The notes under the pieces are model-generated. The model did no database searches, had not been told where the DNA came from, and saw only the letters and a list, made by a program, of their open reading frames with translations. A DNA stretch of 64,000 nucleotides from Thermodesulfobacteriota bacterium (lineage in GTDB: Bacteria; Desulfobacterota_D; UBA1144; Nemesobacterales; JAJCZQ01), in NCBI GenBank assembly GCA_965215275.1, contig OZ244044.1, forward strand, positions 384,001-448,000, read 5' to 3'. Below are positions 15,585 to 52,364 of this stretch, piece after piece. A program made the translations under genes and the position numbers. How positions within the stretch are numbered: the stretch's first letter is position 1; each line of letters begins with the position of its first letter.

Positions 15585-17600
15585 TATATCAGCCACATCA
15601 TTGGTTTCTAAATCTGTAGCTCTAATCGTATACTCAGTCTCCTCCAACGCTTCCATAGGTGTGCCAGTCATTCTCCAACGGGGAATACTGATGCTCAATC
15701 CACGAGGAAGAACAGTAGGAATTACACGGTAACTTCTTCTCCCAGACCCTCCTGTTAGAGGAGGTAAATCTAATGGTGTTATCTGAACTCCTTCTGTATA
15801 AACCTGATTAGGGATCGTTGCACCGCTAAAGGTTAGATCATGATGTTTAGGACCTGTCTCACTGCCAAGGGATGTAAAAATATCCCCCTTCCCGTGCCCG
15901 TAGACCTTAATGCTCCAGGAGTGTAAGGTAAAAGTATTTTCTTCATCTGCTTCATCTCCGGAAGCAGTATCGGATATATCAAGGGTCCATTCTCCGGAAG
16001 GGTCTTCTCCGAGGTGTTTAGCCGACCCGAAACGATGTGTTCTTCTTACATAACTGATCTCAGCGTCTTCTTCCTCACCTGAAAATTCCCGGACAAGTTC
16101 AGAAACTGTACCGGAAGGAGAGGTTATCCGTATATTGAGGTCCTGTAAGCAGTCACACGAGAGAACGAGTTCTACCTCAACGAATTCCGTAAATATTTCC
16201 TCCAGGTCCGAAATCATAAGTGTGGAGACAAGGACCCCGTCCGCTTCTCCTTCTCCATCAGGGATCGTCAGTTCATTATCTGAAGAAGCTGTAACGGTCC
16301 TCATTTCACCAACGCCTTTCCAGCTTCCGGCAAGCTCTGCGGCTGCTTCTGCGTCTACCACGCCAAAACCATACCTGGGACTATAATTATATCTTTCCAC
16401 GTCAGAACCGTATTTAACGGCTCCTGTCTCCCAGCTCGGATCAGAAACGTCGTTCTGCCGTGCTGAACCCGCAAGTATGAGCTTTATATCCCTCCAGCTC
16501 AGCTGTCCGTTTATCTCTCTCAGCAGTGCCGCCACCCCTGCAACCTGTGCTGCTGAAAGGAACGTTCCGGAAGTTACAACGTAATCGTCGTTGTTATCAG
16601 TGGTTACAATATCAGAACCAGGTGCACATACCCATAGATTTACTCCCTCTTCTGAAAAAATACTCTTCTTTCCAAAGCCGTCCGTTGAACAAACGGCCGT
16701 TACTCCGTAATAGCTGGAATATTCAGAAAAATTAGCCTGATCTCCGCTCTCATGCCCGTCCCCTGCTCCCCGGACATAAAATATTCCCCTGCCGTAAAAC
16801 CCTTCCCTTATACCCTCTTCCACTCCCTCTTCCACTCCCTCTTCCCACTCAGCTGAAGCACTCTGAAGAAAAACTCCGTCCTCCCGTCCCCGGTCGCTGA
16901 CGGACACTGCCGTTATTTCATTGTTGCGGACCATTGCGTCCGCTTCCCCGGGATCACCGGATAACCTGTAACTGCATACATTCGCACCGGGTGCAACTCC
17001 CCTTGCTCCCGATCCGTTGTATCCAGTTGCTGCAATTACTCCTGCCGCTCGTGTTCCGGTAAAGGATGAACCGTCAGACAGATCAACGCTTTCTGAACTG
17101 TTTTCTTCAGAACTGTTTTTTCCAGAAAGATCATAGTTCAGTCCGGAACGGACGTTTGCAGAAAGGTCCTCATGTGAAAGGTCCTCATGTGAAAGGTCCT
17201 CATGTGAAAGGTCCTCATGTGAAAGGTCCTCATGTGAAAGGTCCATACCGTCACTTACTATTGCTACATTAATTCCGGAACCGTATACGCCATCGTTCCA
17301 CACTCCCTCTGCGTTTATATCCTCTCCTGCAGTTATTTCCTTTCCTGAATAAATAAACTGCCCAGTGTTCTTCAGATGCCACTGACATCCGTATAACGGA
17401 TCTTCTGTGTCTGCACTGTTACCTCTGCATCCGGAGAACGGGTCCTTTATGCTGCCCTGTCCCCTTGTATCAACGGATATAAAACACAGAAGAAAAAAGA
17501 CAAAGAAAAGTATGAACCGTCTGCCGTTCCGGCGGGAACTGCCCGTTAAACTACGACGTTGATGGGGGGGGGGATAGAACTCATCATGTTTTTCATACAT
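13719..17600 (-). CDS. Paralog A: catalytically dead kexin-like S8 + P-domain + Ig-like repeats + Gly-Cys-TM anchor; in frame (C10)
   Basis: VAIVSDG / TGTRAAG / SGTFLSA replace D/H/S; LSWRDIK, YGFGVVDA and P-domain GEDPSGEWTL present; ISGTPT repeats; C-terminus GGGGGCAVS...IRRKRR. Confidence 0.9.
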   Translation of the reverse strand: MYEKHDEFYPPPHQRRSLTGSSRRNGRRFILFFVFFLLCFISVDTRGQGSIKDPFSGCRGNSADTEDPLYGCQWHLKNTGQFIYSGKEITAGEDINAEGVWNDGVYGSGINVAIVSDGMDLSHEDLSHEDLSHEDLSHEDLSHEDLSANVRSGLNYDLSGKNSSEENSSESVDLSDGSSFTGTRAAGVIAATGYNGSGARGVAPGANVCSYRLSGDPGEADAMVRNNEITAVSVSDRGREDGVFLQSASAEWEEGVEEGVEEGIREGFYGRGIFYVRGAGDGHESGDQANFSEYSSYYGVTAVCSTDGFGKKSIFSEEGVNLWVCAPGSDIVTTDNNDDYVVTSGTFLSAAQVAGVAALLREINGQLSWRDIKLILAGSARQNDVSDPSWETGAVKYGSDVERYNYSPRYGFGVVDAEAAAELAGSWKGVGEMRTVTASSDNELTIPDGEGEADGVLVSTLMISDLEEIFTEFVEVELVLSCDCLQDLNIRITSPSGTVSELVREFSGEEEDAEISYVRRTHRFGSAKHLGEDPSGEWTLDISDTASGDEADEENTFTLHSWSIKVYGHGKGDIFTSLGSETGPKHHDLTFSGATIPNQVYTEGVQITPLDLPPLTGGSGRRSYRVIPTVLPRGLSISIPRWRMTGTPMEALEETEYTIRATDLETNDVADIEFRIRIRAAADVPDFGDTQVRDQTFGNGRPIRLGMPVADGGNGNLNYSITPALPAGLTFTSNNRQISGTLNVAPNMLPLTETYTYKVTDSDSDTDDGDSDTLTFSYTIEANSVPSFSETIPDQTYVQGTSANLPVTLPEATGGNGTVSYSLTPVRLPAGLDFDENTRVISGTPTETIAAPGRTYTYRAMDDDLDTGTRTFSITITALSFDGQVSSPVLYLAERPVTPLTLPAATGGTAPYTYSLTPAPPAGLTFDRTTRVISGTPTAATPLKTYTYTVTDGNGTAVEVMFDLAVRAHFSGVEIQGKVYTVGTAVMETLPEATGHNGTVTYSLTPVLSSIGLSFDPATRVISGTPTATQNARTYTYTATTGAGGPARTLMFHITVRNEPNTIPSFGGEMIEDKEYIAGIPITPFVLPEATGGNGNLTYSLTPGLPDGLDFNETTRTISGTPTAATSETDHTWSAADEDNEMEGLTFSITVEEDSRPEFGSDMIEVHVYSGSPIRLPAATGGNAPLRYSIMPPLPPELRLNETTGRISGTPRSASTRTYMYTVTDRNGDTDDVSFMLSVTVPPPTSGNGGGGGGCAVSDQSSAASDIFGAVACLMLIPVSVVIRRKRRSRINA
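17161..17244. repeat. 15-bp in-frame tandem repeat x5.6 encoding (LSHED)n
   Basis: GAAAGGTCCTCATGT units; the dead paralogs have a single copy. Confidence 0.95.
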
Positions 17601-17635
17601 TCTTGTATTCTACTTCCGTTCTGATGTAATGTCAA
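17564..17635 (-). promoter_or_regulatory. Promoter TTGACA-N17-TAGAAT, 6 nt before ATG 17600, plus a C10 tract (17564..17573)
   Basis: Read directly; no Shine-Dalgarno, consistent with a leaderless mRNA. Confidence 0.75.
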
Positions 17636-17821
17636 GTATGAACTTCTTTTTCTTTTCTTTCCTGCAATGATAAAAATATTCAGGATGTACGGATCATTCC
17701 CTTTTTTATCCCGTTCACTGTAATTGACGGTATTCAGTTTCCACTGATAATAATAAAGGGTAAAATACAGCCTGTAAACCGTTCAGGGTAATACCCATTT
17801 TTCAGAGGAGGTTCATAATAA

Positions 17822-18268
17822 ATGAGTTTGAACGTATATCTTGCCGGTGAGGTCCATTCCGAATGGAGGGACAGGGTTATTGAAGGTGCGAAAGGGGAAG
17901 GGCTTAACGTTGTTTTTACCTCTCCCGTTACCGACCACGAAGCAAGTGATATGTGCGGGGTAAATATACTAGGCGACGAGAGCGACCCTTTCTGGCGGGA
18001 CAGGAAAGGAGCAGGTCTGAACGCTATCAGAAGATCTATAATTATCAGGAACGCGGACATTGTCGTGGTACGGTTCGGTCCTAAATACAGACAGTGGAAC
18101 GCTGCTTTTGACGCCGGTTATGCTTCGGCGATCGGTAAATCTATCATATCGCTGCACGAGCAAGAACACGACCACGCTTTAAAGGAGGTCGACGCTGCTT
18201 CGGACGCTACTGCCAGAACTCCCGAACAGGTGGTCGAAATACTGAAGTACGTACTTTCCGGTCCATGA
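17822..18268 (+). CDS. YtoQ-family protein (nucleoside 2-deoxyribosyltransferase-like)
   Basis: VYLAGEVHSEWR, HEASD, QWNAAFDAGYA and LKEVD motifs; RBS GAGGAGG. Confidence 0.85.
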   Translation: MSLNVYLAGEVHSEWRDRVIEGAKGEGLNVVFTSPVTDHEASDMCGVNILGDESDPFWRDRKGAGLNAIRRSIIIRNADIVVVRFGPKYRQWNAAFDAGYASAIGKSIISLHEQEHDHALKEVDAASDATARTPEQVVEILKYVLSGP

Positions 18269-18981
18269 GCTATAAGAACGTAAAGGCGGTTTCCTTTGAC
18301 GCGGCAGACACTCTTTTTTATATCAAGGACGGGCTGGAAAATACCTACGCTGAAGTGGCAGGCAGGTACGGGATCAGTCCCTCTCCCGTGGAAATTAAGA
18401 ACTCGTTCTCAAGGCATTTTTCCAAAGCCCCGCCCCTGGATACCAATACCGACGATCAGGAGGAGAGAAAGACCCTTGAGAAGGACTGGTGGTACGACGT
18501 GGTGCACAACGTCTACAAGGACGTCGGGATGTTCGAGAGTTTCGATGAGTATTTCAATGATCTTTTTGAGGTTTTCAGGACCCGGGCCTGGAAGATATTT
18601 CCGGAAACGAAAAAGGTGCTTTCTGAGCTGAAGAACAGGGGATATAAGACCATAATAGTATCGAACTTTGATTCAAGGGTCTATGACGTCTGTCGCAGCC
18701 TTGGGATAATCCAGTACTTCGATGACCTTGTTATATCGAGCGAGACGGGTTACGCCAAACCTGCCGTTGAGATATTTCAAATCACTCTGGAAAGAAAGAA
18801 CCTCAGGCCTGGTCAGTGCGTTCATATCGGTGATGATTTCACGAACGACTATATCTGTCCGACGTCAATCGGAATGAACGCGCTTTTTCTTGACAGGGAA
18901 GACACAAGTAACTACGGCGGAAGGAATAAAATAAGCGACCTTAACAAGGTCATACAAAAACTTGAAGGTAAAGGTGCATGA
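18265..18981 (+). CDS. HAD-IA family hydrolase
   Basis: FDAADTL, VSNFD, KP and HIGDDFTND motifs; ATGA overlap with the upstream gene. Confidence 0.88.
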   Translation: MSYKNVKAVSFDAADTLFYIKDGLENTYAEVAGRYGISPSPVEIKNSFSRHFSKAPPLDTNTDDQEERKTLEKDWWYDVVHNVYKDVGMFESFDEYFNDLFEVFRTRAWKIFPETKKVLSELKNRGYKTIIVSNFDSRVYDVCRSLGIIQYFDDLVISSETGYAKPAVEIFQITLERKNLRPGQCVHIGDDFTNDYICPTSIGMNALFLDREDTSNYGGRNKISDLNKVIQKLEGKGA

Positions 18982-19088
18982 ACGGGCCCGTGGACGACCC
19001 GACCGCTTTAAAAGAGTTCCGGTATGATCTTTGTTGTTTCAGATGTACAGTACTGATAAGTACGGGAGAAAGGGCAGTTGACCGGTCG

Positions 19089-19412
19089 TTACAGCTTGTC
19101 AATGTCCATCAAAGCATCTTCAAATTCATCTGCCATTCCCGGATGACCATGTCTTTTTGCCGCGTGGATCCCTTTCTTATATGCTTCCTTTGCCAGCTCC
19201 GTTTTTCCGGTCTCCATATAGGATTCTGCCAAAAGCCTGTATCCTGCTCCTTCGTCGCTGTATGAACTTAGATAATATAAAAGCTGTTTTATGGCATTTT
19301 CATAATCGCTGAACTTGAAGTATTCGTTTGCAATTGAATACCTTATCAGGGAATTCCCGGGATTTTTTTCCAGCATCCTTTTAAACTGTTCAAGCCTGTT
19401 TTGCTTATTCAT
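19089..19412 (-). CDS. Small TPR-repeat protein
   Basis: NPGNSLIRYSIANEY...YRLLAESY...AKEAYKKGI TPR pattern. Confidence 0.8.
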   Translation of the reverse strand: MNKQNRLEQFKRMLEKNPGNSLIRYSIANEYFKFSDYENAIKQLLYYLSSYSDEGAGYRLLAESYMETGKTELAKEAYKKGIHAAKRHGHPGMADEFEDALMDIDKL

Positions 19413-19608
19413 TGGTGAATATACTTTACCATAAGAAGGTATTTACAGAAAAGGAACTGTTGTTATATGTAGGTCTATCTGCTGGCAACCGTTGTCGGTC
19501 CGTATTTTTTTAGTTTTATCAAGTTTTCAGATTTGTATTATTTACAGTTACAGGTTATCATATAAAGCTAACTAAACGTAAAAAGGTGTATACGTATAGA
19601 TTAAAAAA

Positions 19609-20300
19609 GGGAATTATATAAAATAGTAAACAAGGTATCAACAGGAACAGGATAATGTATAGAGATAATTAAGGTTTTCACTTGATAAACCGGCAGTTTG
19701 AGTTCATGGGGATGTTCCCTGGCAAGAGGTCAGCGGAAAAACGGTTTGAAAGGCCGTTATGTAGAGACGGGAGATATTGGCGTCAGTGTCCGAAGTGGCA
19801 GTATAACGGCAACGGGTAATATATCGTTTCAGGAAAAGGTTATTGGCAGTATACCTGACAACCGCAGGTTTGAAGGTATTGTCCGGTCGTAAAACGGGAA
19901 GGTATACGGGAACTGTGCAGAAAACGGGTCGGTTTTTTCCGCACGGGACAGGAAAGGGTCTGAAGAGCAGTCTGATTATCATTTAAAGTAACAGAAGGAA
20001 CACGGGGAGGAAGCAGAAAGGCAAAGTCATCAGGAACAGACGGGAGGGTCATGGTAAAGGCAACTAAAACCATAAAAAGTGAGGCATCATAAGGTATGAC
20101 GGACGGAAGTGCATGTCCATACAAAGGGACAGAAAGTTTCCGGTCTGCGTTGCAAGAGGTTTTGCAGGAATGTATCACAAGACGTCAGGGAAACATTTAC
20201 AAAGATGTACAGATGAGCATGCAGGAAGGCGTAACAACGGAGCATTGCCGACCGTGGATCAGGTCGAAGACATGATCAGGGGGTCGCGTGGCAATAGAGA
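19609..20300 (+). pseudogene. Decayed IS1595 element
   Basis: Starts GGGAATTATATA; fragment MYHKTSGKHLQRCTDEHAGRRN aligns with VYHKMSKKHLQRYVDEYAGRHN of IS-2; frame broken. Confidence 0.75.
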
Positions 20301-20381
20301 TCAAATACTGTTGATGAATGATCCCTACATCCTGAATTATTTTTATCATTGCAAGAAAGGTAAAGAAAAAGAAATTCATAC

Positions 20382-20538
20382 TTGACATTCGTTCATAATA
20401 CAAAGTAAAATATCAATGTTATGAAAAGATCAAATATAAAAAAGCGTATCTCCATTACCCCCCCCCCCGTGTATACCAGACCTTTCAGTTGTACACGGGT
20501 ATCCTGCAATGACAATGCCTGAGCTTATCCCCCCCCCC
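20382..20538 (+). promoter_or_regulatory. Promoter TTGACA-N18-TAAAAT, ATG 20421, and two poly-C tracts (C11 20458..20468; C10 20529..20538)
   Basis: Read directly; ATG 20421 hits TGA at 20520. Confidence 0.75.
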
Positions 20539-23500
20539 ATCAACGTCATAGTTTAACGGGCAGTTCCCGCCGGAACGGCAGACGGTTCATACTTTCCCTT
20601 GTCCTTTTTCTTCTGTGTTTTATATCCGTTGATACAAGGGGACAGGGCAGCATAAAGGACCCGTTCTCCGGATGCAGGGGCGTCAGTGCAGATACGGAAG
20701 ATCCGCTGTACGGGTGTCAGTGGCATCTGAAGAACACGGGGCAGCTTGGTTTTTCCGGAAAAGCAGTAACAGCAGGAGAAGATATAAACATAGAGGGAGT
20801 GTGGAACGAAGACGTATATGGTTCTGGAATTAACGTAGCAGTAGTAAGTAATGGAATAGACCTTTCACATGAGGACCTTTCTGCAAACGTCCGTTCCGGA
20901 CTGAACTGGAGTTATTCCGAAGAAAACAGTTCTGAAAGCGGTGACCTGTCTGATATTTCATCCTTTACCGGAACACGAGCGGCAGGTGTAATAGCAGCTT
21001 CTGGATATAACGGACTGGGAGTAAGAGGAACTGCACCTGGTGCGAGTATATACAGTTATAAGTTAACTGATGATATCAGGGAAGCGGACGCAATGGATGC
21101 AAGGGATGCAATGGTCCGTAATAAGGAAATAACTGCAGTATCGGTTAACGACTGGGGACCGGAAGATAAATATTCTCTTCATCAGGCATCATCTGTCTGG
21201 GAAGAAGGAGTGGAACTTGGAATAAAGAAAGGGTTTTATGGGAAAGGAGTGTTTTACGTCCGGGGAGCAGGGGACGGGCACGAGAATAACGATCAGGCTA
21301 ATTTTTCTGAATATTCTAATTACTACGGAGTAACTGCCGTTTGTTCAACGGACGGCTTTGGAAAAAAGAGTGTATTTTCAGAAGAGGGAGTAAATCTATG
21401 GGTATGTGCACCTGGTTCTGATATTGTAACCACTGATAACAACAACGAATACGTTGTAACTTCCGGAACATTTCTTTCAGCTTCACAGGTTGCAGGGGTG
21501 GCAGCACTGCTGAGAGAGGTTAATGGAGAACTGAGCTGGAGGGATATAAAGCTTATACTTGCGGGTTCAGCACGGCAGAACGACGTTTCTGATATTAGCT
21601 GGGAGACTGGAGCTGTTAAATACGGCTCTGACACGGAAAGATATAAATATAATCCTAAGTATGGTTTTGGCGTGGTAGACGCGGAAGCAGCTGTAGAACT
21701 TGCCAGAAGCTGGAAAGGCGTTGGTGAAATGAGAACCATTACAGCTTCTTCCGATAATGAACTGACAATTCCTGATGGAGAAGGAGAAGCAGATGGGGTC
21801 CTTGTCTCCAGACTTATGATACCGGACATGGAAGAAATATTTACGGAATTCGTTGAGGTTGAACTTGTTTTTTCTCATGACCGATTACCGGACCTTAACA
21901 TACAGATAACCTCTCCTTCCGGGACAGTATCGGAACTTGTAAGGGAGTTTTCAGTTGAGGAAGAAGACGCTGAGATCAGTTACCTGAGAAGAACACATCG
22001 TTTCGGGTCGGCTAAGCACCTCGGAGAAGACCCTTCCGGAGAATGGACCTTAAAGATATCTGATACTGCTTCCGGAGATGGAGAAGATGGGACCTTACAC
22101 TCCTGGAGCATTAAGGTATACGGGCATAAGAAGGGGGATACCGCTGCAGACCTTGCTAAGGAGATAACTACTAAAGCTTTAAATTGGGGCGGACAGACAG
22201 TTCAGGATCAGGTGTACAGAGTAGGAACTCAGATAGCACCGTTACAGCTGCCTGAGGCGACCGGGGCAGAAGGAATAACGTACAGTATAAAGCCTGGTTT
22301 ACCTGCTGGGCTGGAGTTTAACGATACCACCAGAGTTATAAGCGGAACCCCAACTAAATCGCAGTCTAATGAACGTTATCAAATTGTTGCCAGAGACGCA
22401 GACGGGAACGTGAAGGGTTTAGCGTTCCATATAAGGATAAGGTTCCGTAACTCCACGGTACCGAGTTTCAGCGATACCATCCCGGATCAGAACTATGTAA
22501 CGGGGAGATCAATAACGCCACTGGTGTTCCCTCGTGCAACGGGAGGGGATGGTCAGTTAAGGTACACTTTTGACGGCACTTTAACTAACTTACCAAATGG
22601 ATTGAGCCTTTCCAGGAATCCGTTCAGGATAATTGGAACACCAGGTAGTGGTAGTGCGGGGACAAGTACCTGGCAATATACCGCTACTGACACAGACGGG
22701 GATACTGCTACACTTGAGTTCAGGATAAGGATAAGAGCTGCAGCTGACGTTCCGGACTTCGGCGATACGCAGGTGAGGGATCAGACGTTTGGTAACGGCA
22801 GACCAATAAGGCTGGGAATGCCTGTGGCAGATGGCGGGAATGGAAATTTAAATTACAGTATAACTCCTGCCTTGCCTGCTGGATTGACCTTTACCAGCAA
22901 CAACCGACAGATAAGCGGGACATTGAACGTTGCTCCAAATATGCTGCCTCTGACTGAAACCTATACCTACAAGGTAACTGACTCTGACTTGGATATTGAT
23001 GACGGTGATTCTGATACTCTGACCTTCTCTTATACGATAGAAGCTAATTCAGTGCCGAGTTTCAGCGAGACTATCCCTGATCAGACATATGTTCAAGGGA
23101 CATCGGCAAACCTTCCGGTAACGCTGCCTGAGGCAACGGGAGGTAATGGAACGGTAAGCTACAGCCTGACCCCTGTTCGTTTACCAGCCGGACTGGACTT
23201 TGATGAAAACACCCGGGTTATAAGCGGAACACCAACCGAGACCATAGCTGCTCCTGGTCGAACTTACACGTATAGGGCAAGGGACGATGATCTGGACACG
23301 GGTACTCGCACCTTCTCTATTACGATAACGGCCCTGTCCTTTGACGGGCAGGTATCTTCTCCTGTTTTGTACCTGGCAGAAAGACCAGTAACACCATTAA
23401 CGCTGCCTGCTGCTACGGGAGGTACTGCTCCGTATACCTACAGTCTGACCCCTGCCCCACCTGCCGGATTGACCTTTGACAGAACCACCCGGGTTATAAG

Positions 23501-24581
23501 CGGAACACCGACTGCTGCAACGCCTTTGAAGACCTATACGTATACCGTTACAGACGGTAACGGAACTGCGGTGGAGGTGATGTTCGATCTTGCCGTAAGA
23601 GCACACTTTTCAGGCGTTGAGATACAAGGCAAGGTGTATACGGTCGGGACGGCAGTAATGGAAACGCTGCCTGAGGCAACTGGACATAATGGAACGGTAA
23701 CGTACAGTTTAACTCCTGTTTTATCTTCTATTGGATTGAGTTTTGATCCTGCTACCCGGGTTATAAGCGGAACACCGACTGCTACACAGAATGCGAGGAC
23801 CTATACGTATACTGCTACTACCGGTGCAGGTGGACCTGCTCGAACTTTGATGTTCCATATCACTGTAAGAAATGAACCCAACACAATACCGAGTTTCGGC
23901 GGTGAGATGATAGAGGATAAGGAATACATAGCAGGAATTCCGATAACACCGTTCGTGCTGCCTGAGGCAACGGGAGGGAATGGAAACTTAACTTACAGTT
24001 TAACGCCTGGTTTACCTGATGGACTGGATTTTAACGAAACCACCAGAACTATAAGCGGGACACCGACTGCTGCAACGTCTGAGACTGATCATACATGGAG
24101 CGCTGCTGACGAGGATAATGAAATGGAAGGGTTAACGTTCAGTATAACAGTGGAAGAGGACAGCAGACCGGAATTTGGCAGTGATATGATAGAAGTTCAT
24201 GTGTACAGTGGGAGTCCAATAAGGCTTCCTGCTGCAACGGGAGGGAATGCACCGTTAAGATACAGTATAATGCCTCCCTTACCTCCTGAATTGAGATTGA
24301 ACGAAACCACCGGAAGGATAAGTGGCACACCCAGGAGTGCATCAACAAGAACTTACATGTATACGGTAACGGACAGGAATGGAGATACAGATGATGTGAG
24401 TTTCATGCTCAGTGTAACGGTTCCACCACCAACGTCAGGTAATGGCGGAGGTGGAGGAGGATGTGCCGTCTCGGATCAGAGCAGCGCTGCTTCTGATATT
24501 TTCGGAGCAGTGGCATGTCTGATGCTTATACCCGTGTCAGTAGTTATCAGAAGGAAAAGAAGATCTCGGATAAATGCATAG
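20421..24581 (+). CDS. Paralog B: dead S8 + P + Ig repeats + anchor; phase-OFF as assembled (frame open from 20523, ORF track start 20799)
   Basis: VAVVSNG / TGTRAAG / SGTFLSA; signal peptide RRFILSLVLFLLCFISVDTRG is in frame upstream of 20799 but has no in-frame start. Confidence 0.85.
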
Positions 24582-24596
24582 CAATGAGGTCCTTTC
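22716..24596. repeat. Inverted-repeat arm (partner 13704..15584)
   Basis: Reverse complement of the 3' half of A. Confidence 0.92.
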
Positions 24597-25114
24597 AGGG
24601 ACGTTCATGAGAGAGGACCGCGTAATGGTCCTCCCCTGTACCCGTTCGCTTAACGTAAAGGCAGCGTTACCGCGCACTGGACCGTCCCTGTATTCTGATG
24701 AGACGACAGGATAAGCAGAGGAAGGCATCAGCACGGGTGATCTTCCGAACGTTCCGTTTACTGAGGTATACCGTTCCCCGTTATAATCCCGTTGTCAGCG
24801 TTCCCGGCAGGATACCTTTACAGGGAAAGGGAGCAGGTAGATATAAAGGCAGGTACATGTCCGGGGATCAGTCCTGAAGGTCTGAAAAGGTTCCGTATCG
24901 TGTAATTTCAGCCACGGGGAGGCGTTCACGGTTCCTGGAACGGGAGGACTTCAACGTCCTGGACACGCGGACGTCCCGACGTCAGGGAAAGAGGTCGGAC
25001 CTGACCGCCCGTTGTCTGCAAGAGGACCCCGTCAGGTCAGCAAAAAAAGTGCAGAGACGCCGAAGGGGTTCCCGGAAAACGCCTAGGACAGGGATGAACG
25101 TCCCTGAAAGGAAC

Positions 25115-28100: not shown

Positions 28101-28736
28101 AACCTGTAACTGTATATACTCGCACCGGGTGCTACTCCTCTTGTTCCCAGTCCGTTATATCCAGTAGCTGCAATTACACCTGCCGCTCGTGTTCCGGTAA
28201 AGGATGAACCGTCAGAAAGATCAACGCTTTCTGAACTGCTTTCTTCAGAACTGTTTTTTTCAGAATAACTCCAGTTCAGACCGGAACGGACGTTCGCAGA
28301 AAGGTCCTCATGTGAAAGGTCCATTCCATTACTTACAACTGCTATATTAATCCCGGAACCGTATACGTCATCGTTCCACACTCCCTCTATATTTATATCT
28401 TCTCCTGCAGTTATTTCCTTTCCTGAATAACTTAACTGCCCAGTGTTCTTCAGATGCCACTGACATCCGTATAACGGATCTTCCGTTTCTGTACTGATAC
28501 CTCTGCATTCAGATAACGTTTCTTCTAAGCTGCTCTGCCCTTTTGCAGCTATTACCAGTATAAACAGAAGAAATAAGACTAAAGAAAGGATTGACTTAGA
28601 TGGGGGGGGGTATTATCTTAAACATTTTTCTTATAAAATACTTATACCAGACTGAAAGTTCACGTATACACGGGGGGGGGGTAATGGAACTGCGTGTTTT
28701 TGTTTTTATGTTTGGATTTTTCATGAAATTTTTCAT
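25115..28736 (-). CDS. Paralog C: dead S8 + P + Ig repeats + anchor; phase-OFF as assembled (ORF track start 28381)
   Basis: IAVVSNG / TGTRAAG / SGTFLSA; ATG 28736 reads through C10 (28672..28681) and stops just after C9 (28602..28610); signal PSKSILSLVLFLLFILVIAAKG is in the main frame. Confidence 0.85.
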
Positions 28737-28745
28737 AACACTGAT

Positions 28746-28775
28746 ATTTTACTTCGTATTATGAACGAATGTCAA
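28746..28775 (-). promoter_or_regulatory. Promoter TTGACA-N18-TAAAAT for paralog C
   Basis: Read directly; about 155 bp further upstream is homologous to 17636..17790. Confidence 0.72.
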
Positions 28776-29061
28776 GTGTAATTTCCTTTTCTTTCCTTTC
28801 CTGCAATGACAATGATATTCAGGATGCACGGATCATTCCCTTTTTTTTCCCGTTCACTGTAACTTGCGGTATTCAGTTCCCACTGATAATAATAAAGGGT
28901 AAAATACAGCCTGTCAACCGTTCAGGGTAATCCAAAAAATATGTATAAGAATGAATAAAGAAAACAATACCAGGACCTCCGATCAATGTAGAGTTTGGCC
29001 GCCGTACCTGCAATACCGACCGGTAGATCATCAAAGGGCCTGAAAGTAAACAAAAGCAAGA

Positions 29062-37640: not shown

Positions 37641-37725
37641 TTGACATTAGTTCATAATACGAAGTAAAATATCAGCATTGTGAAAAATTCAAACATAAAA
37701 ACGCGTAGTTCCATTACCCCCCCCC
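37641..37725 (+). promoter_or_regulatory. Promoter TTGACA-N18-TAAAAT, GTG 37680, and a C9 tract (37717..37725)
   Basis: Leader MKNSNIKTRSSITPP is homologous to the B, C and F leaders; C10 would be in frame. Confidence 0.72.
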
Positions 37726-41177: not shown

Positions 41178-43630
41178 GTCAGATCATCCGTATCCCCATC
41201 TTCATCCGTTACAGTATATGTATAAGCCGTTCTGCTCGCTGCAGTGGTCGGTGTCCCGCTTATCACTCGGGTATCAGGATCAAAGTCCAGTCCAGTCGGT
41301 AATGGAGGCGTTATACTGTAAGTTAATGGAGCATTCCCTCCCGCTGCCTCAGGCAGTGTTACCGGAAGGTTTGTTGCTGTTCCTGCTATGTACTCCTGAT
41401 CATCTATCGTATCACTGAAGCCTGGCACTTCGTTTGCAGCTATTGTGATACCGAACGTCAGATCATCCGTATCCCCATCTTCATCCGTTACAGTATATGT
41501 ATAAGCCGTTCTGCTCGCTGCAGTGGTCGGTGTCCCGCTTATCACTCGGGTATCAGGATCAAAGTCCAGTCCAGTCGGTAATGGAGGCGTTATACTGTAA
41601 GTTAATGGAGCATTCCCTCCAGCTGCCTCAGGCAGTGTTACCGGAAGGTTTGTTGCTGTTCCTGCTATGTACTCCTGATCATCTATCGTATCACTGAAGC
41701 CTGGCACTTCGTTTGCAGCTATTGTGATACCGAACGTCAGATCATCCGTATCCCCATCTTCATCCGTTACAGTATATGTATAAGCCGTTCTGCTCGCTGC
41801 AGTGGTCGGTGTCCCGCTTATCACTCGGGTATCAGGATCAAAGTCCAGTCCAGTCGGTAATGGAGGCGTTATACTGTAAGTTAATGGAGCATTCCCTCCC
41901 GCTGCCTCAGGCAGTGTTACCGGAAGGTTTGTTGCTGTTCCTGCTATGTACTCCTGATCATCTATCGTATCACTGAAGCCTGGCACTTCGTTTGCAGCTA
42001 TTGTGATACCGAACGTCAGATCATCCGTATCCCCATCTTCATCCGTTACAGTATATGTATAAGCCGTTCTGCTCGCTGCAGTGGTCGGTGTCCCGCTTAT
42101 CACTCGGGTATCAGGATCAAAGTCCAGTCCAGTCGGTAATGGAGGCGTTATACTGTAAGTTAATGGAGCATTCCCTCCAGCTGCCTCAGGCAGTGTTACC
42201 GGAAGGTTTGTTGCTGTTCCTGCTATGTACTCCTGATCATCTATCGTATCACTGAAGCCTGGCACTTCGTTTGCAGCTATTGTGATACCGAACGTCAGAT
42301 CATCCGTATCCCCATCTTCATCCGTTACAGTATATGTATAAGCCGTTCTGCTCGCTGCAGTGGTCGGTGTCCCGCTTATCACTCGGGTATCAGGATCAAA
42401 GTCCAGTCCAGTCGGTAATGGAGGCGTTATACTGTAAGTTAATGGAGCATTCCCTCCCGCTGCCTCAGGCAGTGTTACCGGAAGGTTTGTTGCTGTTCCT
42501 GCTACGTACTCCTGATCATCTATCGTATCACTGAAGCCTGGCACTTCGTTTGCAGCTATTGTGATACCGAACGTCAGATCATCCGTATCCCCATCTTCAT
42601 CCGTTACAGTATATGTATAAGCCGTTCTGCTCGCTGCAGTGGTCGGTGTCCCGCTTATCACTCGGGTATCAGGATCAAAGTCCAGTCCAGTCGGTAATGG
42701 AGGCGTTATACTGTAAGTTAATGGAGCATTCCCTCCCGCTGCCTCAGGCAGTGTTACCGGAAGGTTTGTTGCTGTTCCTGCTATGTACTCCTGATCATCT
42801 ATCGTATCACTGAAGCCTGGCACTTCGTTTGCAGCTATTGTGATACCGAACGTCAGATCATCCGTATCCCCATCTTCATCCGTTACAGTATATGTATAAG
42901 CCGTTCTGCTCGCTGCAGTGGTCGGTGTCCCGCTTATCACTCGGGTATCAGGATCAAAGTCCAGTCCAGTCGGTAATGGAGGCGTTATACTGTAAGTTAA
43001 TGGAGCATTCCCTCCCGCTGCCTCAGGCAGTGTTACCGGAAGGTTTGTTGCTGTTCCTGCTATGTACTCCTGATCATCTATCGTATCACTGAAGCCTGGC
43101 ACTTCGTTTGCAGCTATTGTGATACCGAACGTCAGATCATCCGTATCCCCATCTTCATCCGTTACAGTATATGTATAAGCCGTTCTGCTCGCTGCAGTGG
43201 TCGGTGTCCCGCTTATCACTCGGGTATCAGGATCAAAGTCCAGTCCAGTCGGTAATGGAGGCGTTATACTGTAAGTTAATGGAGCATTCCCTCCCGCTGC
43301 CTCAGGCAGTGTTACCGGAAGGTTTGTTGCTGTTCCTGCTACGTACTCCTGATCATCTATCGTATCACTGAAGCCTGGCACTTCGTTTGCAGCTATTGTG
43401 ATACCGAACGTCAGATCATCCGTATCCCCATCTTCATCCGTTACAGTATATGTATAAGCCGTTCTGCTCGCTGCAGTGGTCGGTGTCCCGCTTATCACTC
43501 GGGTATCAGGATCAAAGTCCAGTCCAGTCGGTAATGGAGGCGTTATACTGTAAGTTAATGGAGCATTCCCTCCCGCTGCCTCAGGCAGTGTTACCGGAAG
43601 GTTTGTTGCTGTTCCTGCTATGTACTCCTG
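40970..43630 (-). pseudogene. 3' part of paralog E (Ig repeats + anchor) disconnected by a frameshift
   Basis: A 26-bp deletion at about 43630 in one repeat unit shifts the frame; ORF track entry 40970..43498. Confidence 0.85.
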
Positions 43631-44398
43631 GCACTTCGTTTGCAGCTATTGTGATACCGAACGTCAGATCATCCGTATCCCCATCTTCATCCGTTACAGT
43701 ATATGTATAAGCCGTTCTGCTCGCTGCAGTGGTCGGTGTCCCGCTTATCACTCGGGTATCAGGATCAAAGTCCAGTCCAGTCGGTAATGGAGGCGTTATA
43801 CTGTAAGTTAATGGAGCATTCCCTCCCGCTGCCTCAGGCAGTGTTACCGGAAGGTTTGTTGCTGTTCCTGCTATGTACTCCTGATCATCTATCGTATCAC
43901 TGAAGCCTGGCACTTCGTTTGCAGCTATTGTGATACCGAACGTCAGATCATCCGTATCCCCATCTTCATCCGTTACAGTATATGTATAAGCCGTTCTGCT
44001 CGCTGCAGTGGTCGGTGTCCCGCTTATCACTCGGGTATCAGGATCAAAGTCCAGTCCAGTCGGTAATGGAGGCGTTATACTGTAAGTTAATGGAGCATTC
44101 CCTCCCGCTGCCTCAGGCAGTGTTACCGGAAGGTTTGTTGCTGTTCCTGCTATGTACTCCTGATCATCTATCGTATCACTGAAGCCTGGCACTTCGTTTG
44201 CAGCTATTGTGATACCGAACGTCAGATCATCCGTATCCCCATCTTCATCCGTTACAGTATATGTATAAGCCGTTCTGCTCGCTGCAGTGGTCGGTGTCCC
44301 GCTTATCACTCGGGTATCAGGATCAAAGTCCAGTCCAGTCGGTAATGGAGGCGTTATACTGTAAGTTAATGGAGCATTCCCTCCAGCTGCCTCAGGCA
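41168..44398. repeat. 279-bp (93-aa) tandem array, about 11.7 units, one unit 253 bp
   Basis: Antisense ORF starts recur every 279 bp except 43450 to 43703 (253 bp). Confidence 0.97.
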
Positions 44399-47057
44399 AC
44401 TCTACAGGTGTTATCGGACTGCCTGCTATGTATTCCTGATCAGCTATCTTTTCACCGCTGAGGTCTGGCATGATGTCAGCTAATATAGTGATCCCGAACG
44501 TCAACGCGGCTGTATCTCTATCTTTGTCTGTTACAGTATATGTGTAAGTAGTCTTACTCATTGCAGTAGTGGGTGTGCCGTTTAGCACTCGGGTAGCACT
44601 GTTAAAGATAAAACCATCCGGCAATAACGGATTTAGTCTATAAGTTAATGTTCCATTCCCTCCCGTTGCCCCAGGCAGCGTTACCGGTGTTATAGGAATT
44701 CCTGCTATGTACTCCTGGTCATCTATCTTTTCACCGCTAAAGGTTGGCATCGCGTCTGCCAGTATCGTGATACCGAACGTCAGATCATCCGTATCCCCGT
44801 CTTCGTCAGTTACGGTATACGTGTAGGTATTCTCAGGCGCCGCAGTGGTCGGCAGACCGCTTATTACTCGGGTAGCAGGAGCAAAACTCAATCCAGTCGG
44901 CAATGTCGGAGTTAAAACGTAAGTTAATGTTCCATTCCCTCCCGTCGCCTTAGGCAGCTTTACAGATGTTATCGGACTACCTGCTATGTACTCCCGATCA
45001 CCTATCGTATCACTGCCAAAGTCCGGTATTGTGTCACCCTTCTTATGACCATAAACTTTAATGCTCCACGAGTGTAAAGTCCCGGTATCTGCCTCTTGAG
45101 TATCAGTGATATTCAAACTCCATTCTCCAGCAGGGTCTTCTCCCAAGTGTCTGGCTGAACCAAAACGATGGGTTTGATCGGTATAACTAAAATCATCTCT
45201 TAATAATACTCTTTCGACGTCGTCCGTACTTTCACTAAGAACACTGGACTCTTCTACAAATCGCCTGACCAGCTGCGACACGGTACCGGCAGGGGACGTT
45301 ACCTGTATATTTAAATCCGGTAAGAAAGTGTGAGAAAGAACGAGTTCAACCTCTGCAAATTCCATAAATGAAAGTTCCTCACTATCGGGTACGGTCAGCG
45401 TGGATACAATTGTTCCGTCTGTTCCACCTGTGTGATCGAGGATCGCTGTATCCCCGTCTTCGGAAACGAACGTCCGAGTTGCCATTGCTCCAACGCGGTC
45501 CCAGCTTCCCGCAAGTTCCACTGCCGCCTCGGCATCCACTACCCCAAAACCGTACTTTGGATTGTAATTATAACTGTCCGTATCAGAACCGTATTTGAGT
45601 GCTCCCATCTCCCAGTCAGGGTCAGAAACGTCGTTCTGCCGTGCTGAAGCCGCCAGGATCAGCTTCAGGTCCCTCCAGCTAAGGTCACCGTTTGCCTCCC
45701 GCATCAGTGCCGCAACCCCTGAAACCTGCGCAGCTGAATATGACGTGCCACTGACCCTCAAAGCATAGCGGTCCTTATTATCCGTCGTTGTAATATTCAA
45801 ACCCGGAGCACATACCCACAGATTTACTCCCTCTTCCGAAAAAGAACTTTTAGTCCCGTCACCATCTACCGAACAGACGGTAGTTACAGCGTAGTAGTTA
45901 GAGTATTCATCAAAATTAGCTTGATCGTATTCATGGGCAGCATTTTGAGATTGAGAGCCGTATGGTGGAACAGTATCAAGCAGGTCGTGCAGATAACGGA
46001 ACCTGTCATACCCGTCTCCAGCCGCCCAGACGTAAAATACTCCCTTACCACCGAACCCTTCCCTGATACCCGTTTCTACACCTTCCTCCCACATGGCCGA
46101 AGCACTCTGAAGAACCGGTATATCCTCCGGTCCCCAGTTGTTACTGGAAACCGCCGTTACAATATGATTACGGGTCATTGCATCTTTCGCGTTAGCATCA
46201 CTGAAATTACCTGCCAAATTATAACTATAGATGCTCGCCTGTGGTGCTACACCTCTCACACCAAGCTGGTTATCACCCACTCCTGCTATAATGCCTGCTA
46301 CTTGTGTACCATGAGAACTTGAAGGGTTGAATACATTTCTGTTTCCAGAGTAATAACGGTTCAGGCTGGGATTTACATTGGCAGCTAGGTCTTCATGATC
46401 GGGGTCCATACCATTATCTACCACAGCCACGTTAATTCCATTTCCAAATACTGCATCATTCCAGACCCCCTCTATGTTTATATCTTCTCCGGCGGCTATT
46501 GCCTGCCCGTTAAAACTCAGCTGCCCCGTATTTTTCAGATGCCACTGACACCCGTATAAGGGATCATTGGTAAAATTGGTAGTAATGCCTCTGCAATCAG
46601 ATAGCAAAGTATTATAATCAGTATCTGTTGCAACTGTAAGCCGGTAACTATCAGCACCGCTGCTTCTCACAACGATATAGTACGTTCCGGGTCTGAGGCG
46701 GGTTTGTATAGTGGCCATACCGGACATAGTCACTTCAGTAGTACTTGCTATCAGATCATCATTGCTGTCACAAAGCTGTAAACTGTATTCTCGATTATTA
46801 TTGGTGAAGGTTGTCTCTATTTCTACATTGATGTCAGATGCCGGGGCTATCTGAAAATATTCCAGTCCACCGGCACTTTCAAAACTTCCATCGTGTGCCG
46901 CTGCGTCCACTGTCAATGTGGCTTCAACCGTTGCACTGGAGTCGCAATTATTATCACTGGTCTGACCATATGCACCTATGGACATAAAACATAGAAAAGA
47001 AATTAACAGTAAAACTGCTGGTATGATATTCCTTGCAGTAACGATGAATTTTTTCAT
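43581..47057 (-). CDS. Paralog E: kexin-like S8 protease with intact triad, N-terminal PPC-like domain, P-domain and Ig repeats; truncated before the anchor
   Basis: VAVVDNG, SHGTQVAG, SGTSYSA; oxyanion WAAGDG; RBS AAGGTGA before ATG 47057. Confidence 0.9.
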   Translation of the reverse strand: MKKFIVTARNIIPAVLLLISFLCFMSIGAYGQTSDNNCDSSATVEATLTVDAAAHDGSFESAGGLEYFQIAPASDINVEIETTFTNNNREYSLQLCDSNDDLIASTTEVTMSGMATIQTRLRPGTYYIVVRSSGADSYRLTVATDTDYNTLLSDCRGITTNFTNDPLYGCQWHLKNTGQLSFNGQAIAAGEDINIEGVWNDAVFGNGINVAVVDNGMDPDHEDLAANVNPSLNRYYSGNRNVFNPSSSHGTQVAGIIAGVGDNQLGVRGVAPQASIYSYNLAGNFSDANAKDAMTRNHIVTAVSSNNWGPEDIPVLQSASAMWEEGVETGIREGFGGKGVFYVWAAGDGYDRFRYLHDLLDTVPPYGSQSQNAAHEYDQANFDEYSNYYAVTTVCSVDGDGTKSSFSEEGVNLWVCAPGLNITTTDNKDRYALRVSGTSYSAAQVSGVAALMREANGDLSWRDLKLILAASARQNDVSDPDWEMGALKYGSDTDSYNYNPKYGFGVVDAEAAVELAGSWDRVGAMATRTFVSEDGDTAILDHTGGTDGTIVSTLTVPDSEELSFMEFAEVELVLSHTFLPDLNIQVTSPAGTVSQLVRRFVEESSVLSESTDDVERVLLRDDFSYTDQTHRFGSARHLGEDPAGEWSLNITDTQEADTGTLHSWSIKVYGHKKGDTIPDFGSDTIGDREYIAGSPITSVKLPKATGGNGTLTYVLTPTLPTGLSFAPATRVISGLPTTAAPENTYTYTVTDEDGDTDDLTFGITILADAMPTFSGEKIDDQEYIAGIPITPVTLPGATGGNGTLTYRLNPLLPDGFIFNSATRVLNGTPTTAMSKTTYTYTVTDKDRDTAALTFGITILADIMPDLSGEKIADQEYIAGSPITPVELPEAAGGNAPLTYSITPPLPTGLDFDPDTRVISGTPTTAASRTAYTYTVTDEDGDTDDLTFGITIAANEVPGFSDTIDDQEYIAGTATNLPVTLPEAAGGNAPLTYSITPPLPTGLDFDPDTRVISGTPTTAASRTAYTYTVTDEDGDTDDLTFGITIAANEVPGFSDTIDDQEYIAGTATNLPVTLPEAAGGNAPLTYSITPPLPTGLDFDPDTRVISGTPTTAASRTAYTYTVTDEDGDTDDLTFGITIAANEVPGVHSRNSNKPSGNTA

Positions 47058-47088: not shown

Positions 47089-47240
47089 TTAATGTAGTAA
47101 TTTAGGGGAATTATAAAAAAGCTGACAAAACCCTACTGACGGGGGGGGGTGGGGATATGGAAACACGCTTTTTACATCTGATCTTTTTATGAAATTTTTC
47201 ATAATTCTGATATTCTACTTCTGCTCTGCCGTGATGTCAA
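47089..47240 (-). promoter_or_regulatory. Promoter TTGACA-N17-TAGAAT with a 37-aa leader ORF (ATG 47202) containing a C9 tract (47141..47149)
   Basis: Same leader architecture as the other paralogs; an in-frame TAA just upstream of E prevents fusion. Confidence 0.6.
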
Positions 47241-47251
47241 GTATAAATTTT

Positions 47252-48153: not shown

Positions 48154-48221
48154 TTTAGTGATAACCTTTCAAGATTTTGTTCGCTAATGTAACTAACTGC
48201 TGTTTACTTGTCAAATCAAAC

Positions 48222-48796: not shown

Positions 48797-51700
48797 TCAT
48801 TGCCAGGTCTTTATCTGAGACCTTCTCTTCCTTCTGATCACTGCTGATACGGGTACAAGCATCAGACATGCCACTGCTCCGAGCATATCAGGAACAATGC
48901 TGCTCTGATCTGATACAGCACATCCTCCTCCGCCTGAATCAGTACCTGACCCTGGCGGGCTTCCCGTTGGTGGTGAAGGAGCAGATGGAACCTCTACACT
49001 GAGCCTGAAACTCACCTCATCCGTATCTTCATCCCTGTCCGTTGCCGTATACGTGTAAGAAGCAGCAGATGATGCACGGGTGGGTGTCCCACCACTTATA
49101 CTTCTGGTGCTGCCGTTAAAACTCAATCCAATAGAGGATAAAGCAGGCGTTATACTGTAAGTAACCGGTAAATTCCCTCCCGCTGCCTCTGGCAGTTCTA
49201 TTGTTTCCCCCGTGTACACCTGATCTGGTATTGTCACACCGCTGAAGTCAGGTTTGCTGTCTTCTTCCGTTGTTATACTGAACGTTAACTCTGCTGTATC
49301 TTCATCTAAGTCTGTTGCTCTATATGTATACTCAGTCTCAGACGTTGCAGCAGCAGGTGTGCCACTTAACACTCTGGTATTTGCGTTAAAGTTCAATCCG
49401 GTTGGTAACACAGGTGCTATACTGTAAGTTAACGGTGGATTCCCTCCCGTTGCCACGGGCAGCGTTACCGGCGTTATCTGACTGACTGCTATGTACTCCT
49501 GATCATCTATAGTCTCACCGCCGCCGAAACTCGGTTCCGTGTCAGCTAATACAGAGATGCTGAACATTGTCTCATCACTATCTCCATTGCTGTCCGTTAC
49601 CTTATACGTGTAATCAGTAGCAGGTGTTGTGGTCGCGGGCGTGCCGCTTATTACTCGGGTGTTACTGTCAAAATCCAATCCATTTGGTAAAAAAGGTCTA
49701 TTTAAAACAGTTAATCTTAATCTATAGGTTAATGGAGCGTTCCCTGACGTTGCCTCTGGCAGCGTTACCGGAAGACCTGCAGTTGTCCCTTCAATATATA
49801 TCTGATCAGGGATTGACCTATTACCAAAACTCGGCATCGAGTCAGTTTCTACCGTAATAAAGAAGGTCAGACTATCAGAATCAGCATCATCAGTATCGGT
49901 ATCAGAGTCTGTTACCTTATAAGTATAAGTTCTTCTGGAAGTTAGAGTATCTGGAGTTCCAGTTATCTCTCGGGTGTTACTGTTAAAGTTCAATCCATTA
50001 GGTAAAGCAGGAGTTATACTGTAATTTAAAGTTCCATTCCCTCCCGTTGCCTGAGGCAGTGTTAACGTTACTGCTCTGCCGTTAATAAACCCCTGATCCT
50101 CTACCGTCTGACCGCCGAAGTCCGGTGCGTTACGTTCTACCGTAATAGAGAAGGTCACACTATCTTCATCACCGTCGTCGTCTCTTGCAGTATACGTATA
50201 ATGCCAAGTTCGAGGAAGGATATCTGGTCTGACGTCGATTGTCCCGCTTATCACTCGGGCAGCAGGATCAAAACCCAATCCATTAGGTAAAGCACCGGTT
50301 AAACTGTAAGTTAAAGTTCCATTCCCTCCCGTTGGCTCAGGCAGGGTTAACTTTACCGTTCTGCCGTTAACGTACACCTGATCCTCTGCCGTCTCACTGC
50401 CGAAGTCCGGCATCCTTTCTCTTTCTACCCTGATACTGAAAATTAATTCACCTTTATCTCCATCTGCGTCTGTAGCAGTATATTTATAGCCTCTCCTTAT
50501 ATGTCCATCTGGACCTATTAAACGGACTCTGAGTGTCCCGCTTATAGTTCGGGTGTCATCGTTCCAGTCCAATCCACTATGTAAACTAAGCTGACCTGAA
50601 TTGTCATTATCCGTTAAACTGTAAGTATATGGAGTATTCCCTCCCGTTGCTTCAGGCAGGATTAACGTTACTGTTGAACCATTACCATATGTCTTATGAG
50701 GAATTGTTCCAGTAAAGGCTAAAACTTTAGGAATTGCCTCTTTAGCAAAGTCCGATACGGTATCCCCCTTCCCGTGCCCGTATACCCTAATGCTCCAGGA
50801 GTGCAGGGTCCCCGTATATTCTGCTTCTTCATCTCCGGAAGCAGTATCGGAGATCCCAAGGGTCCATTCTCCGGAAGGGTCTTCCCCGAGGTGTTTTGCC
50901 GACCCGAAACGATGTTTTTTTCTCAGGTAACTGACGCAGTTTTTTTCTTCATTCGAAGGTCCCCTTGCAGACTCCCGCACAAGCTCGGACATTGTCCCGG
51001 AAGGAGAGGTTATCTGTATATTGAGGTCCTGCAGGCAGCCACAAGAGAAAACAAGCTCCACCTCAACGAACTCCGTAAACGTTATTTTTTCAAGGTCAGG
51101 TATCACAAGTCCGGAAACAGGGACCCCGTCCGCCTCTCCTTCTCCATCAGGGATCGTCAGTTCATTATCTGAAGAAGCTGTAACGGTCCTCATTTCACCT
51201 ACGCCTTTCCAGTTTCCGGCAAGTTCTGTGGCTGCCTCCGCGTCCACCACGCCAAAACCATACTTATTACTGTATCTGTATCTTTCCACGTCGGAACCGT
51301 ATTTTACCGCTCCTGTCTCCCAGCTCGGATCAGAAACGTCGTTCTGCCGTGCTGAACCCGCAAGTATAAGTTTTATATCCCTCCAGCTCAGCTGGTCGTT
51401 TATCTCTCTCAGCAGTGCCGCCACCCCTGCTGCCTGTGCTGCTGAAAGGAACGTTCCGGAAGCCGCGGCGTAGCCGCCACCGTTATCCGTGGTCACGATA
51501 TCGGAACCCGGTGCACATACCCAAAGATTCACTCCCTCTTCTGAAAATAAACTCTTCTTTCCAGAACCGTCAGTTGAACACACCGCGGTTACGCCATGGT
51601 AATTCGAATGTTCATTAAAACCGGCCTGATCGTTATTCTCGTGCCCGTCCCCTGCTCCCCGGACGTAAAATACCCCTTTACCGTAAAACCCTTCCCTTAT

Positions 51701-52364
51701 ACCCTCTTCCACTCCCTCTTCCCACTCAGCTGAAGCACTCTGAAGAAAAACTCCGTCCTCCCGTCCCCGGTCGCTGACGGACACTGCAGTTATTTCATTG
51801 TTGCGGACCATTGCGTCCGCTTCACCGGGATCACCGGATAACCTGTAACTGCATATGTTCGCACCGGGTGCAACTCCCCTTGCTCCCGACCCGTTGTATC
51901 CGGATGCTGCTATTACGCCTGCAGCCCGCGTTCCGGAAAGGGATGGACCGTCGGAAGGACCGTTCCCTTCTGAACCGTTCTTTTCAGAAAAACTGCAGTT
52001 AGGTCCGGAACGGACGTTCGCAGAAAGGTCCTCATGTGAAAGGTCAATGCCGTCACTTGCTATTGCCACGTTAATCCCGGCACCGGATATCCCGTCGTTC
52101 CACACTCCCTCCACGTTTATATCCTCTCCCGCAGTCATTCCCTTTCCGGAAAAACCGGGCTGCCCAGTGTTCCTCAGATGCCACTGACATCCGTACAGCG
52201 GACCTTCCGCGTCTGAACTGATACCCCTGCATTCAGATAACGGACCTTCCAGGCTACTCTGGCCCTTTGCAGCTATTACCATTAGCAACAGAAGAAAAAA
52301 GATTAAAGAAAGGACTGACTTAGACGGGGGGGGGGGTAATGGAGATACGCTTTTTTACGTTCAT
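48797..52364 (-). CDS. Paralog F: dead S8 + P + Ig repeats + anchor; phase-OFF (C11 at 52326..52336; ORF track start 52288)
   Basis: ATG 52364 reads MNVKKRISITPPPV*; C10 would join PSKSVLSLIFFLLLLMVIAAKG; triad S/S/F. Confidence 0.85.

Follow-up and report, generated by a model that had tools for sequence, protein, structure and literature searches.

What do long runs of cytosine do directly behind the start codons of large surface-protein genes? The question is raised by a window of 64,000 nt (G000:C1:384001-448000) from the genome of an uncultured bacterium labelled Thermodesulfobacteriota, which is available as a single contig of 1.99 Mb with 42.5% GC. The same label is carried by relatives of its HisRS with 74-75% identity, while another HisRS search returned a mixture of phyla. 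Six genes of the window, A to F, carry such a poly-C tract near the 5' end, and in most of them the tract separates the start codon from the frame of the gene. The tracts are probably slipped-strand phase-variation switches of a family of 52 paralogous surface-protein genes. The mechanism is already known (opa/pilC type), while its scale and architecture are unusual. A preliminary description of the window had recognized the switches of five genes, and it had missed how far they extend through the genome, that B and C contain two cassettes each, and that the state of A depends on its start codon.

Poly-C tracts at the starts of a kexin-like family

The lengths of C/G runs in the genome are bimodal, with 78 runs of 6 nt, none of 7 and six of 8, followed by 68, 32 and 18 runs of 9, 10 and 11 nt and 15 longer ones. 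There are 139 runs of at least 8 nt compared to about two expected, and 133 of at least 9 nt compared to about 0.3 (geometric extrapolation from runs of 4-6 nt). The leaders of the 52 members of a kexin-like surface-protein family, 24 with a single and 28 with a double tract, hold 80 of the 139 tracts, with lengths of 8-13 nt. Of these leaders 49 fit the promoter pattern, and three (F, G000:633539 and 753889) were read by hand. Other tracts belong, with labels given from motifs by eye, to eight TPR genes, DNA methyltransferase genes and three methyltransferases. Surface structures and DNA methyltransferases are thus both targets, which is a defining feature of translational phase variation mediated by simple sequence repeats (SSR).

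The leaders share one layout: a sigma-70-type site is followed, 8-10 nt behind its -10 box, by an ATG, and then by a short leader, the poly-C tract and a signal-peptide-like stretch. In 96 of 98 cases an off-phase frame meets a stop after 0-6 codons. The repeat length therefore sets the frame, the off frames end early and the gene is otherwise intact, as is characteristic of SSR-mediated phase variation. A base-by-base check of the window agreed with the preliminary description in the positions, lengths and frame needs of all seven tracts, including the TGA (20520-20522) that ends the current frame of B, the C10 and C9 of gene C with a second tract requiring 8 or 11, the additional C required by D, and the C10 required by F, for which C13 would also open the frame. 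It was likewise right that the OFF genes B, C, D and F have a stop shortly upstream of the last tract (0-6 codons) and that their long frames continue into a hydrophobic signal-peptide-like stretch (judged by eye). The statement that each tract is one base away from ON is numerically true, but it holds for any tract because frames run in threes, and B requires two changes (C11 to C10 and C10 to C11).

As had been noted for the window, the starts lack a Shine-Dalgarno (SD) sequence. A 4-nt SD word precedes only one of 49 family starts (absent from 48), compared to 28% of 530 other genes and a background of 5.5%. The spacing of 8-10 nt after the -10 box differs from that of other genes without SD sequence, which peaks at 6 nt (9/530); the missing SD and the spacing both bear on a possible leaderless mRNA. 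The difference in spacing matters for gene A, which has two overlapping ATGs. The upstream one lies 6 nt after the -10 box and is in frame with the C10, the other lies 10 nt after it, is out of frame and would require C11 or C8. The earlier assignment of A as ON is therefore correct for the first ATG and wrong for the second, the position used by other family leaders. The ON state hinges on the choice of start, and the two reference distributions point in opposite directions.

At present four of the 24 single-tract genes are in frame (six when A and G000:1533632 are read from their 6-nt ATG), and one of the 28 double-tract genes, i.e., 5-7 of the 52 gated genes. Among the 21 scored single tracts 13 need +1 and five need -1, and among the 28 second tracts 20 need -1 and three need +1.

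The products of genes A to F all combine an S8 subtilase domain with a P domain and He_PIG Ig repeats, and most family proteins end in a GGC-hydrophobic-basic tail, for which a sorting-signal family was not found in NCBIfam. The nearest solved structures, with E as query, are the Aeromonas extracellular serine protease (PDB 3hjr), kexin and furin (E value 3e-38 for gene E). The family resembles these proteases in its N-terminal S8 and P domains; it differs by the added Ig repeats and membrane tail, and by the absence of the catalytic triad in gated members. Of 57 subtilase open reading frames (ORFs) examined, all 49 with a frame-gating 5' tract, one of which aligned poorly, lack the full triad, while it is kept in seven of the eight without such a tract. 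In the window, the Asp/His/Ser residues expected of an active S8 kexin-like protease are lost in A, B, C, D and F and present in E. Judged from sequence, the gated set would be a variable binding coat rather than a set of proteases. Two triad-intact members (G000:C1:605571 and 668426) contain internal in-frame tracts of C9 and C17, where a slip would cut off the C-terminal part.

Gene E has the family promoter and start layout, but its C9 sits within an upstream ORF of 37 codons that is unable to fuse to the main ORF, so that the frame of E is not gated by its tract. At window positions 40970-45015 gene E is split near 43627, within a 279-bp Ig-repeat array in which one unit reads 253 bp, and its anchored C-terminal part (43498-40970) lies in a different frame. 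In gene F, an insertion sequence (IS) of the IS1595 family is located between the former promoter-like site and the ATG. The current -10 box, TATAAT, is part of the right end of this element, 11 nt before the ATG. Upstream of D, degenerate IS1595-type ends are present at 36972 and 37556 (region 36972-37575). The features of the six genes are compiled in Table 1.

Table 1. Leaders, tracts and reading frames of genes A to F, with window coordinates.
Feature	Position	Strand	Details
Gene A promoter-like site	17607-17635	-	TTGACA, 17 nt, TAGAAT
Gene A overlapping ATGs	17594-17600	-	17600-17598 and 17596-17594
Gene A poly-C tract	17564-17573	-	C10
Gene A ORF	13719-17600	-	1293 aa; S8 subtilase, P domain, He_PIG Ig repeats, GGC-hydrophobic-basic C-terminal tail; triad lost
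Gene B first cassette	20382-20423	+	TTGACA, 18 nt, TAAAAT, 9 nt, ATG1
Gene B tract 1	20458-20468	+	C11; needs 10 or 13
Gene B linker	20469-20528	+	apparently decayed second promoter-like module; -35-like 20477-20482, -10-like 20500-20505, ATG2 20515-20517
Gene B tract 2	20529-20538	+	C10; needs 8 or 11; C11 in run X2
Gene B main ORF	20539-24581	+	about 1346 codons past tract 2; domain order as in A; triad lost
Gene C first cassette	28734-28775	-	TTGACA, 18 nt, TAAAAT, 9 nt, ATG1
Gene C tract 1	28672-28681	-	C10; in phase with ATG2
Gene C linker	28611-28671	-	apparently decayed second promoter-like module; ATG2 28625-28623
Gene C tract 2	28602-28610	-	C9; OFF; needs 8 or 11
Gene C main ORF	25115-28601	-	about 1161 codons past tract 2; triad lost
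Gene D cassette	37641-37682	+	TTGACA, 18 nt, TAAAAT, 9 nt, GTG
Gene D tract	37717-37725	+	C9; needs 10
Gene D main ORF	37726-40051	+	about 774 codons past tract; triad lost
Gene E leader	47089-47240	-	family promoter and start layout; C9 at 47149-47141
Gene E ORF	43581-47057	-	1158 aa; Asp/His/Ser triad intact; separate ATG with its own SD-like site
Gene F start and tract	52326-52364	-	ATG 52364-52362; C11 at 52336-52326; needs 10 or 13
Gene F main ORF	48797-52325	-	about 1175 codons past tract; triad lost
IS1595-family element	52372-53613	-	terminal inverted repeats; 8-bp target duplication
Former gene F promoter-like site	53626-53654	-	TTGACA, 17 nt, TACACT; severed by the IS

Two tracts in series

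The 28 genes with double leaders are predicted to act as AND gates, in which both tracts must have the correct length. When translation starts at ATG1, all 28 open the frame for only four of the 36 pairs of lengths between 8 and 13, and sequence arithmetic yields no case in which two off-phase tracts compensate each other (0 of 28). One double leader is fully ON, close to the 1.4 that would be expected if the tracts varied independently (8/28 x 5/28 x 28).

The linker of about 60 nt between the two tracts looks like a decayed second promoter-ATG-poly-C cassette, with a -35-like hexamer, 17 nt, a -10-like hexamer, 9 nt, ATG2, 13-16 nt and tract 2 in this order. The linker modules resemble five non-family promoter-ATG-poly-C cassettes that are intact; four of these precede methyltransferase-like sequence, including one in the window (539-603). 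The best of these similarities has a z score of 7.7 and the weakest of 0.6, and 23 of 30 pairs were reached by at most two of 500 shuffles. All 24 distinct linkers have an open frame, in contrast to 25-43% of shuffles and one of five methyltransferase cassettes, which is modest support for selection on an open linker frame. The commonest linker type has accumulated two synonymous and 17 non-synonymous changes without conservation of the amino acids, as is expected for a spacer.

These observations are compatible with the following history. A second cassette would have been placed upstream of the first one, whereupon the promoter of the original, downstream cassette may have decayed into a coding spacer. 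A deletion between the two tracts would return a single-tract gene, such as D and F. Tract-2-type downstream sequence is joined to a tract-1 leader in four single-tract genes (D, F, G000:633539 and 652456), and in D the tract-1-type leader is fused straight to it, just as such a deletion would leave it.

The same slippage could instead operate a three-level dial, in which tract 2 sets on or off and tract 1 high or low output, ATG2 being reached via a weak internal promoter or by re-initiation. ATG2 is kept in all 28 linkers, and a TAnnnT is found exactly 9 nt before it in 22 of them, with a TTGACC 17 nt further upstream in three. When tract 1 is one base short, translation ends within 5 nt of ATG2 in 27 of 28 leaders, and 14 are now in that state. 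A weak route via ATG2 is possible because of this conservation and this position of the stops, and the signal peptide made from ATG2 would have a normal length (by eye). Four further loci would then be weakly on. However, 25 of 28 linkers have a degraded -35-like hexamer and six have lost the -10 box, and an SD-like word was not seen before ATG2 in any of the 28 (by eye). The dial appears less likely than not.

Several observations concern other repeats and the surroundings of the genes. Directly after the tmRNA (121-473), a promoter-ATG-C12 cassette heads a decayed fragment (539-850) that resembles, by eye, the methyltransferase genes at G000:734754 and 1814694. The tmRNA is followed at 1091-7307 by a DUF6361 gene, a 638-aa ORF without known function and an SNF2-like helicase in series, which looks like a defence island. 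A 40-bp unit of almost pure A/T is present in 8.9 perfect copies at 7515-7868, immediately upstream of a Fic-domain gene (7882-9048), and a 10-bp unit in 6.1 copies (31868-31928) ends at the annotated start of hisS, where it could change the start or the promoter of that gene. A search of the window against Rfam returned only the tmRNA and a 5S rRNA, and a leader RNA was not found. Throughout the genome 45 of the 52 gated family genes are on the + strand, on both sides of the origin inferred from the skew (23/23 and 22/29). Their orientation thus does not follow the direction of replication.

Length differences between samples and competing explanations

Length polymorphism between samples, another defining feature of phase variation, was seen at one locus only, tract 2 of gene B. 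Sequencing runs were compared over positions 17300-29000, which include the tracts of A, B and C, using four of the 16 listed runs: X1-X3 from three samples of one study, and X5 from a second study at low depth. The comparison rests on contigs, the library type is unrecorded, and one run may be the source of the assembly. Tract A is crossed without a gap by a 206-nt contig at single-copy depth in X1 (99.6) and X2 (38.3). At tract 2 of gene B, X2 has one extra C at the full depth (42.6/42.6), close to its single-copy depth of 40.7, which yields C11, the in-phase length. X1 (0/96.3) and X3 (0/177.3) have the C10 of the assembly, and X5 does not cover the site. The paralog whose downstream flank is most similar is A, and since X2 has C10 in A, this gene is an unlikely source of the extra C. 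The depth of X3 at this tract is one third of its single-copy depth (557), which may reflect mixed alleles that are not readable from contigs.

The change between samples supports slipped-strand phase variation over an assembly error. In an assembly error the OFF states would be miscalls of genes that are in frame in the cell. Runs of 9-13 nt are indeed error-prone, the read technology is unrecorded, and the lengths in D and F are known from the assembly alone. However, the length of A matches in two samples and that of B tract 2 in two, the completeness of the genome is 99.87%, 180 of 272 A/T runs of at least 8 nt lie inside long ORFs, and the placement of tracts at the starts of 52 genes would be left unexplained, which makes a general miscall highly improbable. 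Neutral decay, with OFF genes as pseudogenes and mutable tracts distributed by gene conversion, is also improbable, although slightly less so. It would agree with the lost triads, with the truncation of some members and with the IS that cut F off its promoter. But most OFF genes have kept open frames of 560-1560 codons, a signal-peptide-like start and the anchor tail, and other families of the order have the layout too, on genes that are unrelated.

The preliminary description had itself offered alternatives, i.e., transcriptional slippage, CCC-C ribosomal frameshifting and polyproline sensing, which turned out to be weak as main mechanisms, because the needed shifts are bidirectional and PPP is encoded in every frame. 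Its switching at the DNA level, in contrast, is supported by tract placement, length distribution and the change at B tract 2. Programmed transcriptional slippage or frameshifting would lead to steady leaky expression at fixed DNA lengths. The tracts are close to the start codon, and +1 slips on CCC-C near the start codon are known in E. coli. Furthermore, in-phase tracts are rarer than one third (16 of 77 scored, p = 0.011, the tracts not being independent). Yet no single programmed frameshift fits, because the shift that an OFF tract requires is +1 in some genes and -1 in others; the homologs do not share a fixed slippery sequence and a single shift direction, as lengths vary between 8 and 13 among paralogs, in-frame alleles exist, and the DNA length differs between runs. 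Such slippage is thus very improbable as the switch, while it may contribute a leak. The least probable explanation is sensing of polyproline via elongation factor P (EF-P), or attenuation by a leader peptide. EF-P is encoded in the genome, and in E the upstream ORF that holds the tract is unable to fuse to the gene. Against this, all prolines are CCC codons within a pure C run, PPP results in any frame, and the tract also breaks the frame.

Slipped-strand phase variation accounts best for these data, and four defining features of the SSR-mediated translational type were found, one of them at a single locus. Nevertheless, several points weigh against it or against the two-tract architecture. 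A single clean length change was seen, contigs lose minority alleles, and for tract 1 of B and both tracts of C paralogs are mixed into the indel rows, which are therefore unreadable. The loss of the triad and the gating may stem from one shared ancestor, which would inflate their association. The comparison of linkers and cassettes used base shuffles and cassettes picked for their promoter pattern, and the similarity was weaker in seven of the 30 pairs. Little weight can be given to the open frames, as the linkers are related and the probability of no stop among 20 substitutions is about 0.17 for the commonest linker type, and the contrast with the first promoters (1/46 open) results mostly from TAA/TAG in their -10 boxes. 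Lastly, the conservation of ATG2 in 28 of 28 linkers is not required by a pure AND gate.

According to the phase-variation model, replication slippage would reversibly add or remove a C and thereby shift the frame, although MutS and MutL are intact. The outcome would be a coat of catalytically dead kexin-like Ig-repeat proteins that is sparsely expressed and differs heritably from cell to cell, probably to change adhesion or to evade phages, grazers or a host. Loss of mismatch repair was considered as a cause and rejected, as both MutS (868 aa) and MutL (617 aa) are intact.

Relatives in the order and known phase-variable systems

The promoter-ATG-C8 pattern is present in six of 101 genomes of the order, i.e., in five of 100 others. 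C/G runs of at least 9 nt number 133 in G000, 130 in G011, 113 in G025 and 75 in G080, and fewer than 30 in most others, many of which are fragmented bins. Among 15 loci fetched from five genomes, eight head large secreted-type proteins without N-terminal similarity to the G000 family, one heads a methyltransferase, and the rest nothing clear. One gene of G005 has two tracts in series, a C21 before and a C12 after the signal peptide, with an internal ATG between them. The double-tract pattern at a spacing of 55-75 nt was found in four of the 100 other genomes; both G072 loci are without a long ORF behind. These two loci (L140 and L141) are copies of a C9-66 nt-C9 element. The subtilase part of the family was not found in G001-G004 with the query used, and G001 matched the Ig repeats only. 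This same-genus bin has a G9 within the 16-nt TTGACA-TATAAT spacer of an Ig-repeat lipoprotein-like gene (L143:11062-11088), a candidate transcriptional switch. In JGI metagenomes the leader pattern was present in 13 stretches, from which no conclusion is drawn. The sequence that family genes share upstream does not, in most cases, extend further than about 170 nt from the tract; a common IS end was not found before the genes, so that transposition of the cassette would be conjectural.

Taken together, it is conceivable, with somewhat less than even confidence, that half of the 52-member family is headed by tandem copies of a portable 70-nt promoter-ATG-poly-C cassette. These would form a two-bit mutational logic, an AND gate or a three-level dial, by which few of about 50 variants are displayed without a regulator or a recombinase, and the same design, double tracts included, might have arisen on unrelated adhesins in other families of the order. 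Serial tracts would be a simple way to keep a big antigen family sparse without mutual exclusion, with about one in three genes on for one tract and about one in nine for two. The 28 double and 24 single leaders represent a natural test set. Such tract-gated genes resemble pseudogenes and drop out of short-read bins, which should be kept in mind in annotation.

Phase variation is known mostly from vertebrate pathogens. Genes with both a promoter repeat and a coding repeat occur in Neisseria and Helicobacter, and the tract of Cpn 1054 of Chlamydia pneumoniae is also a poly-C, in a family that is smaller than that of G000. A family-wide two-tract gate, or phase variation in this lineage, was not found in a literature search that covered few subscription papers. 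Neisseria has 11 opa paralogs per strain with CTTCT repeats, and pilC with a poly-G tract, all under translational phase variation (PMC5320596). As in opa and pilC, the repeat in G000 is located in the 5' coding region of surface-protein genes, with one frame in three on, and as in opa a paralog family is switched gene by gene. In the poly-G phasome of Campylobacter, lengths of 9 and 10 make up 53% and 26% (PMC6321876). G000 has the same length peak (68 and 32 of 139) and likewise includes restriction-modification genes, while its putatively phase-variable set is larger than in any Campylobacter strain of that study. Phase variation based on homopolymers has been hypothesised for Cpn 1054 and the Pmp paralog families of C. 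pneumoniae (PMC4514472), again for paralogous families. For N. meningitidis, 277 candidate phase-variable genes have been listed across the population, of which 115 were seen to vary (PMC5084427), so that the number in G000 is high, but not beyond all precedent.

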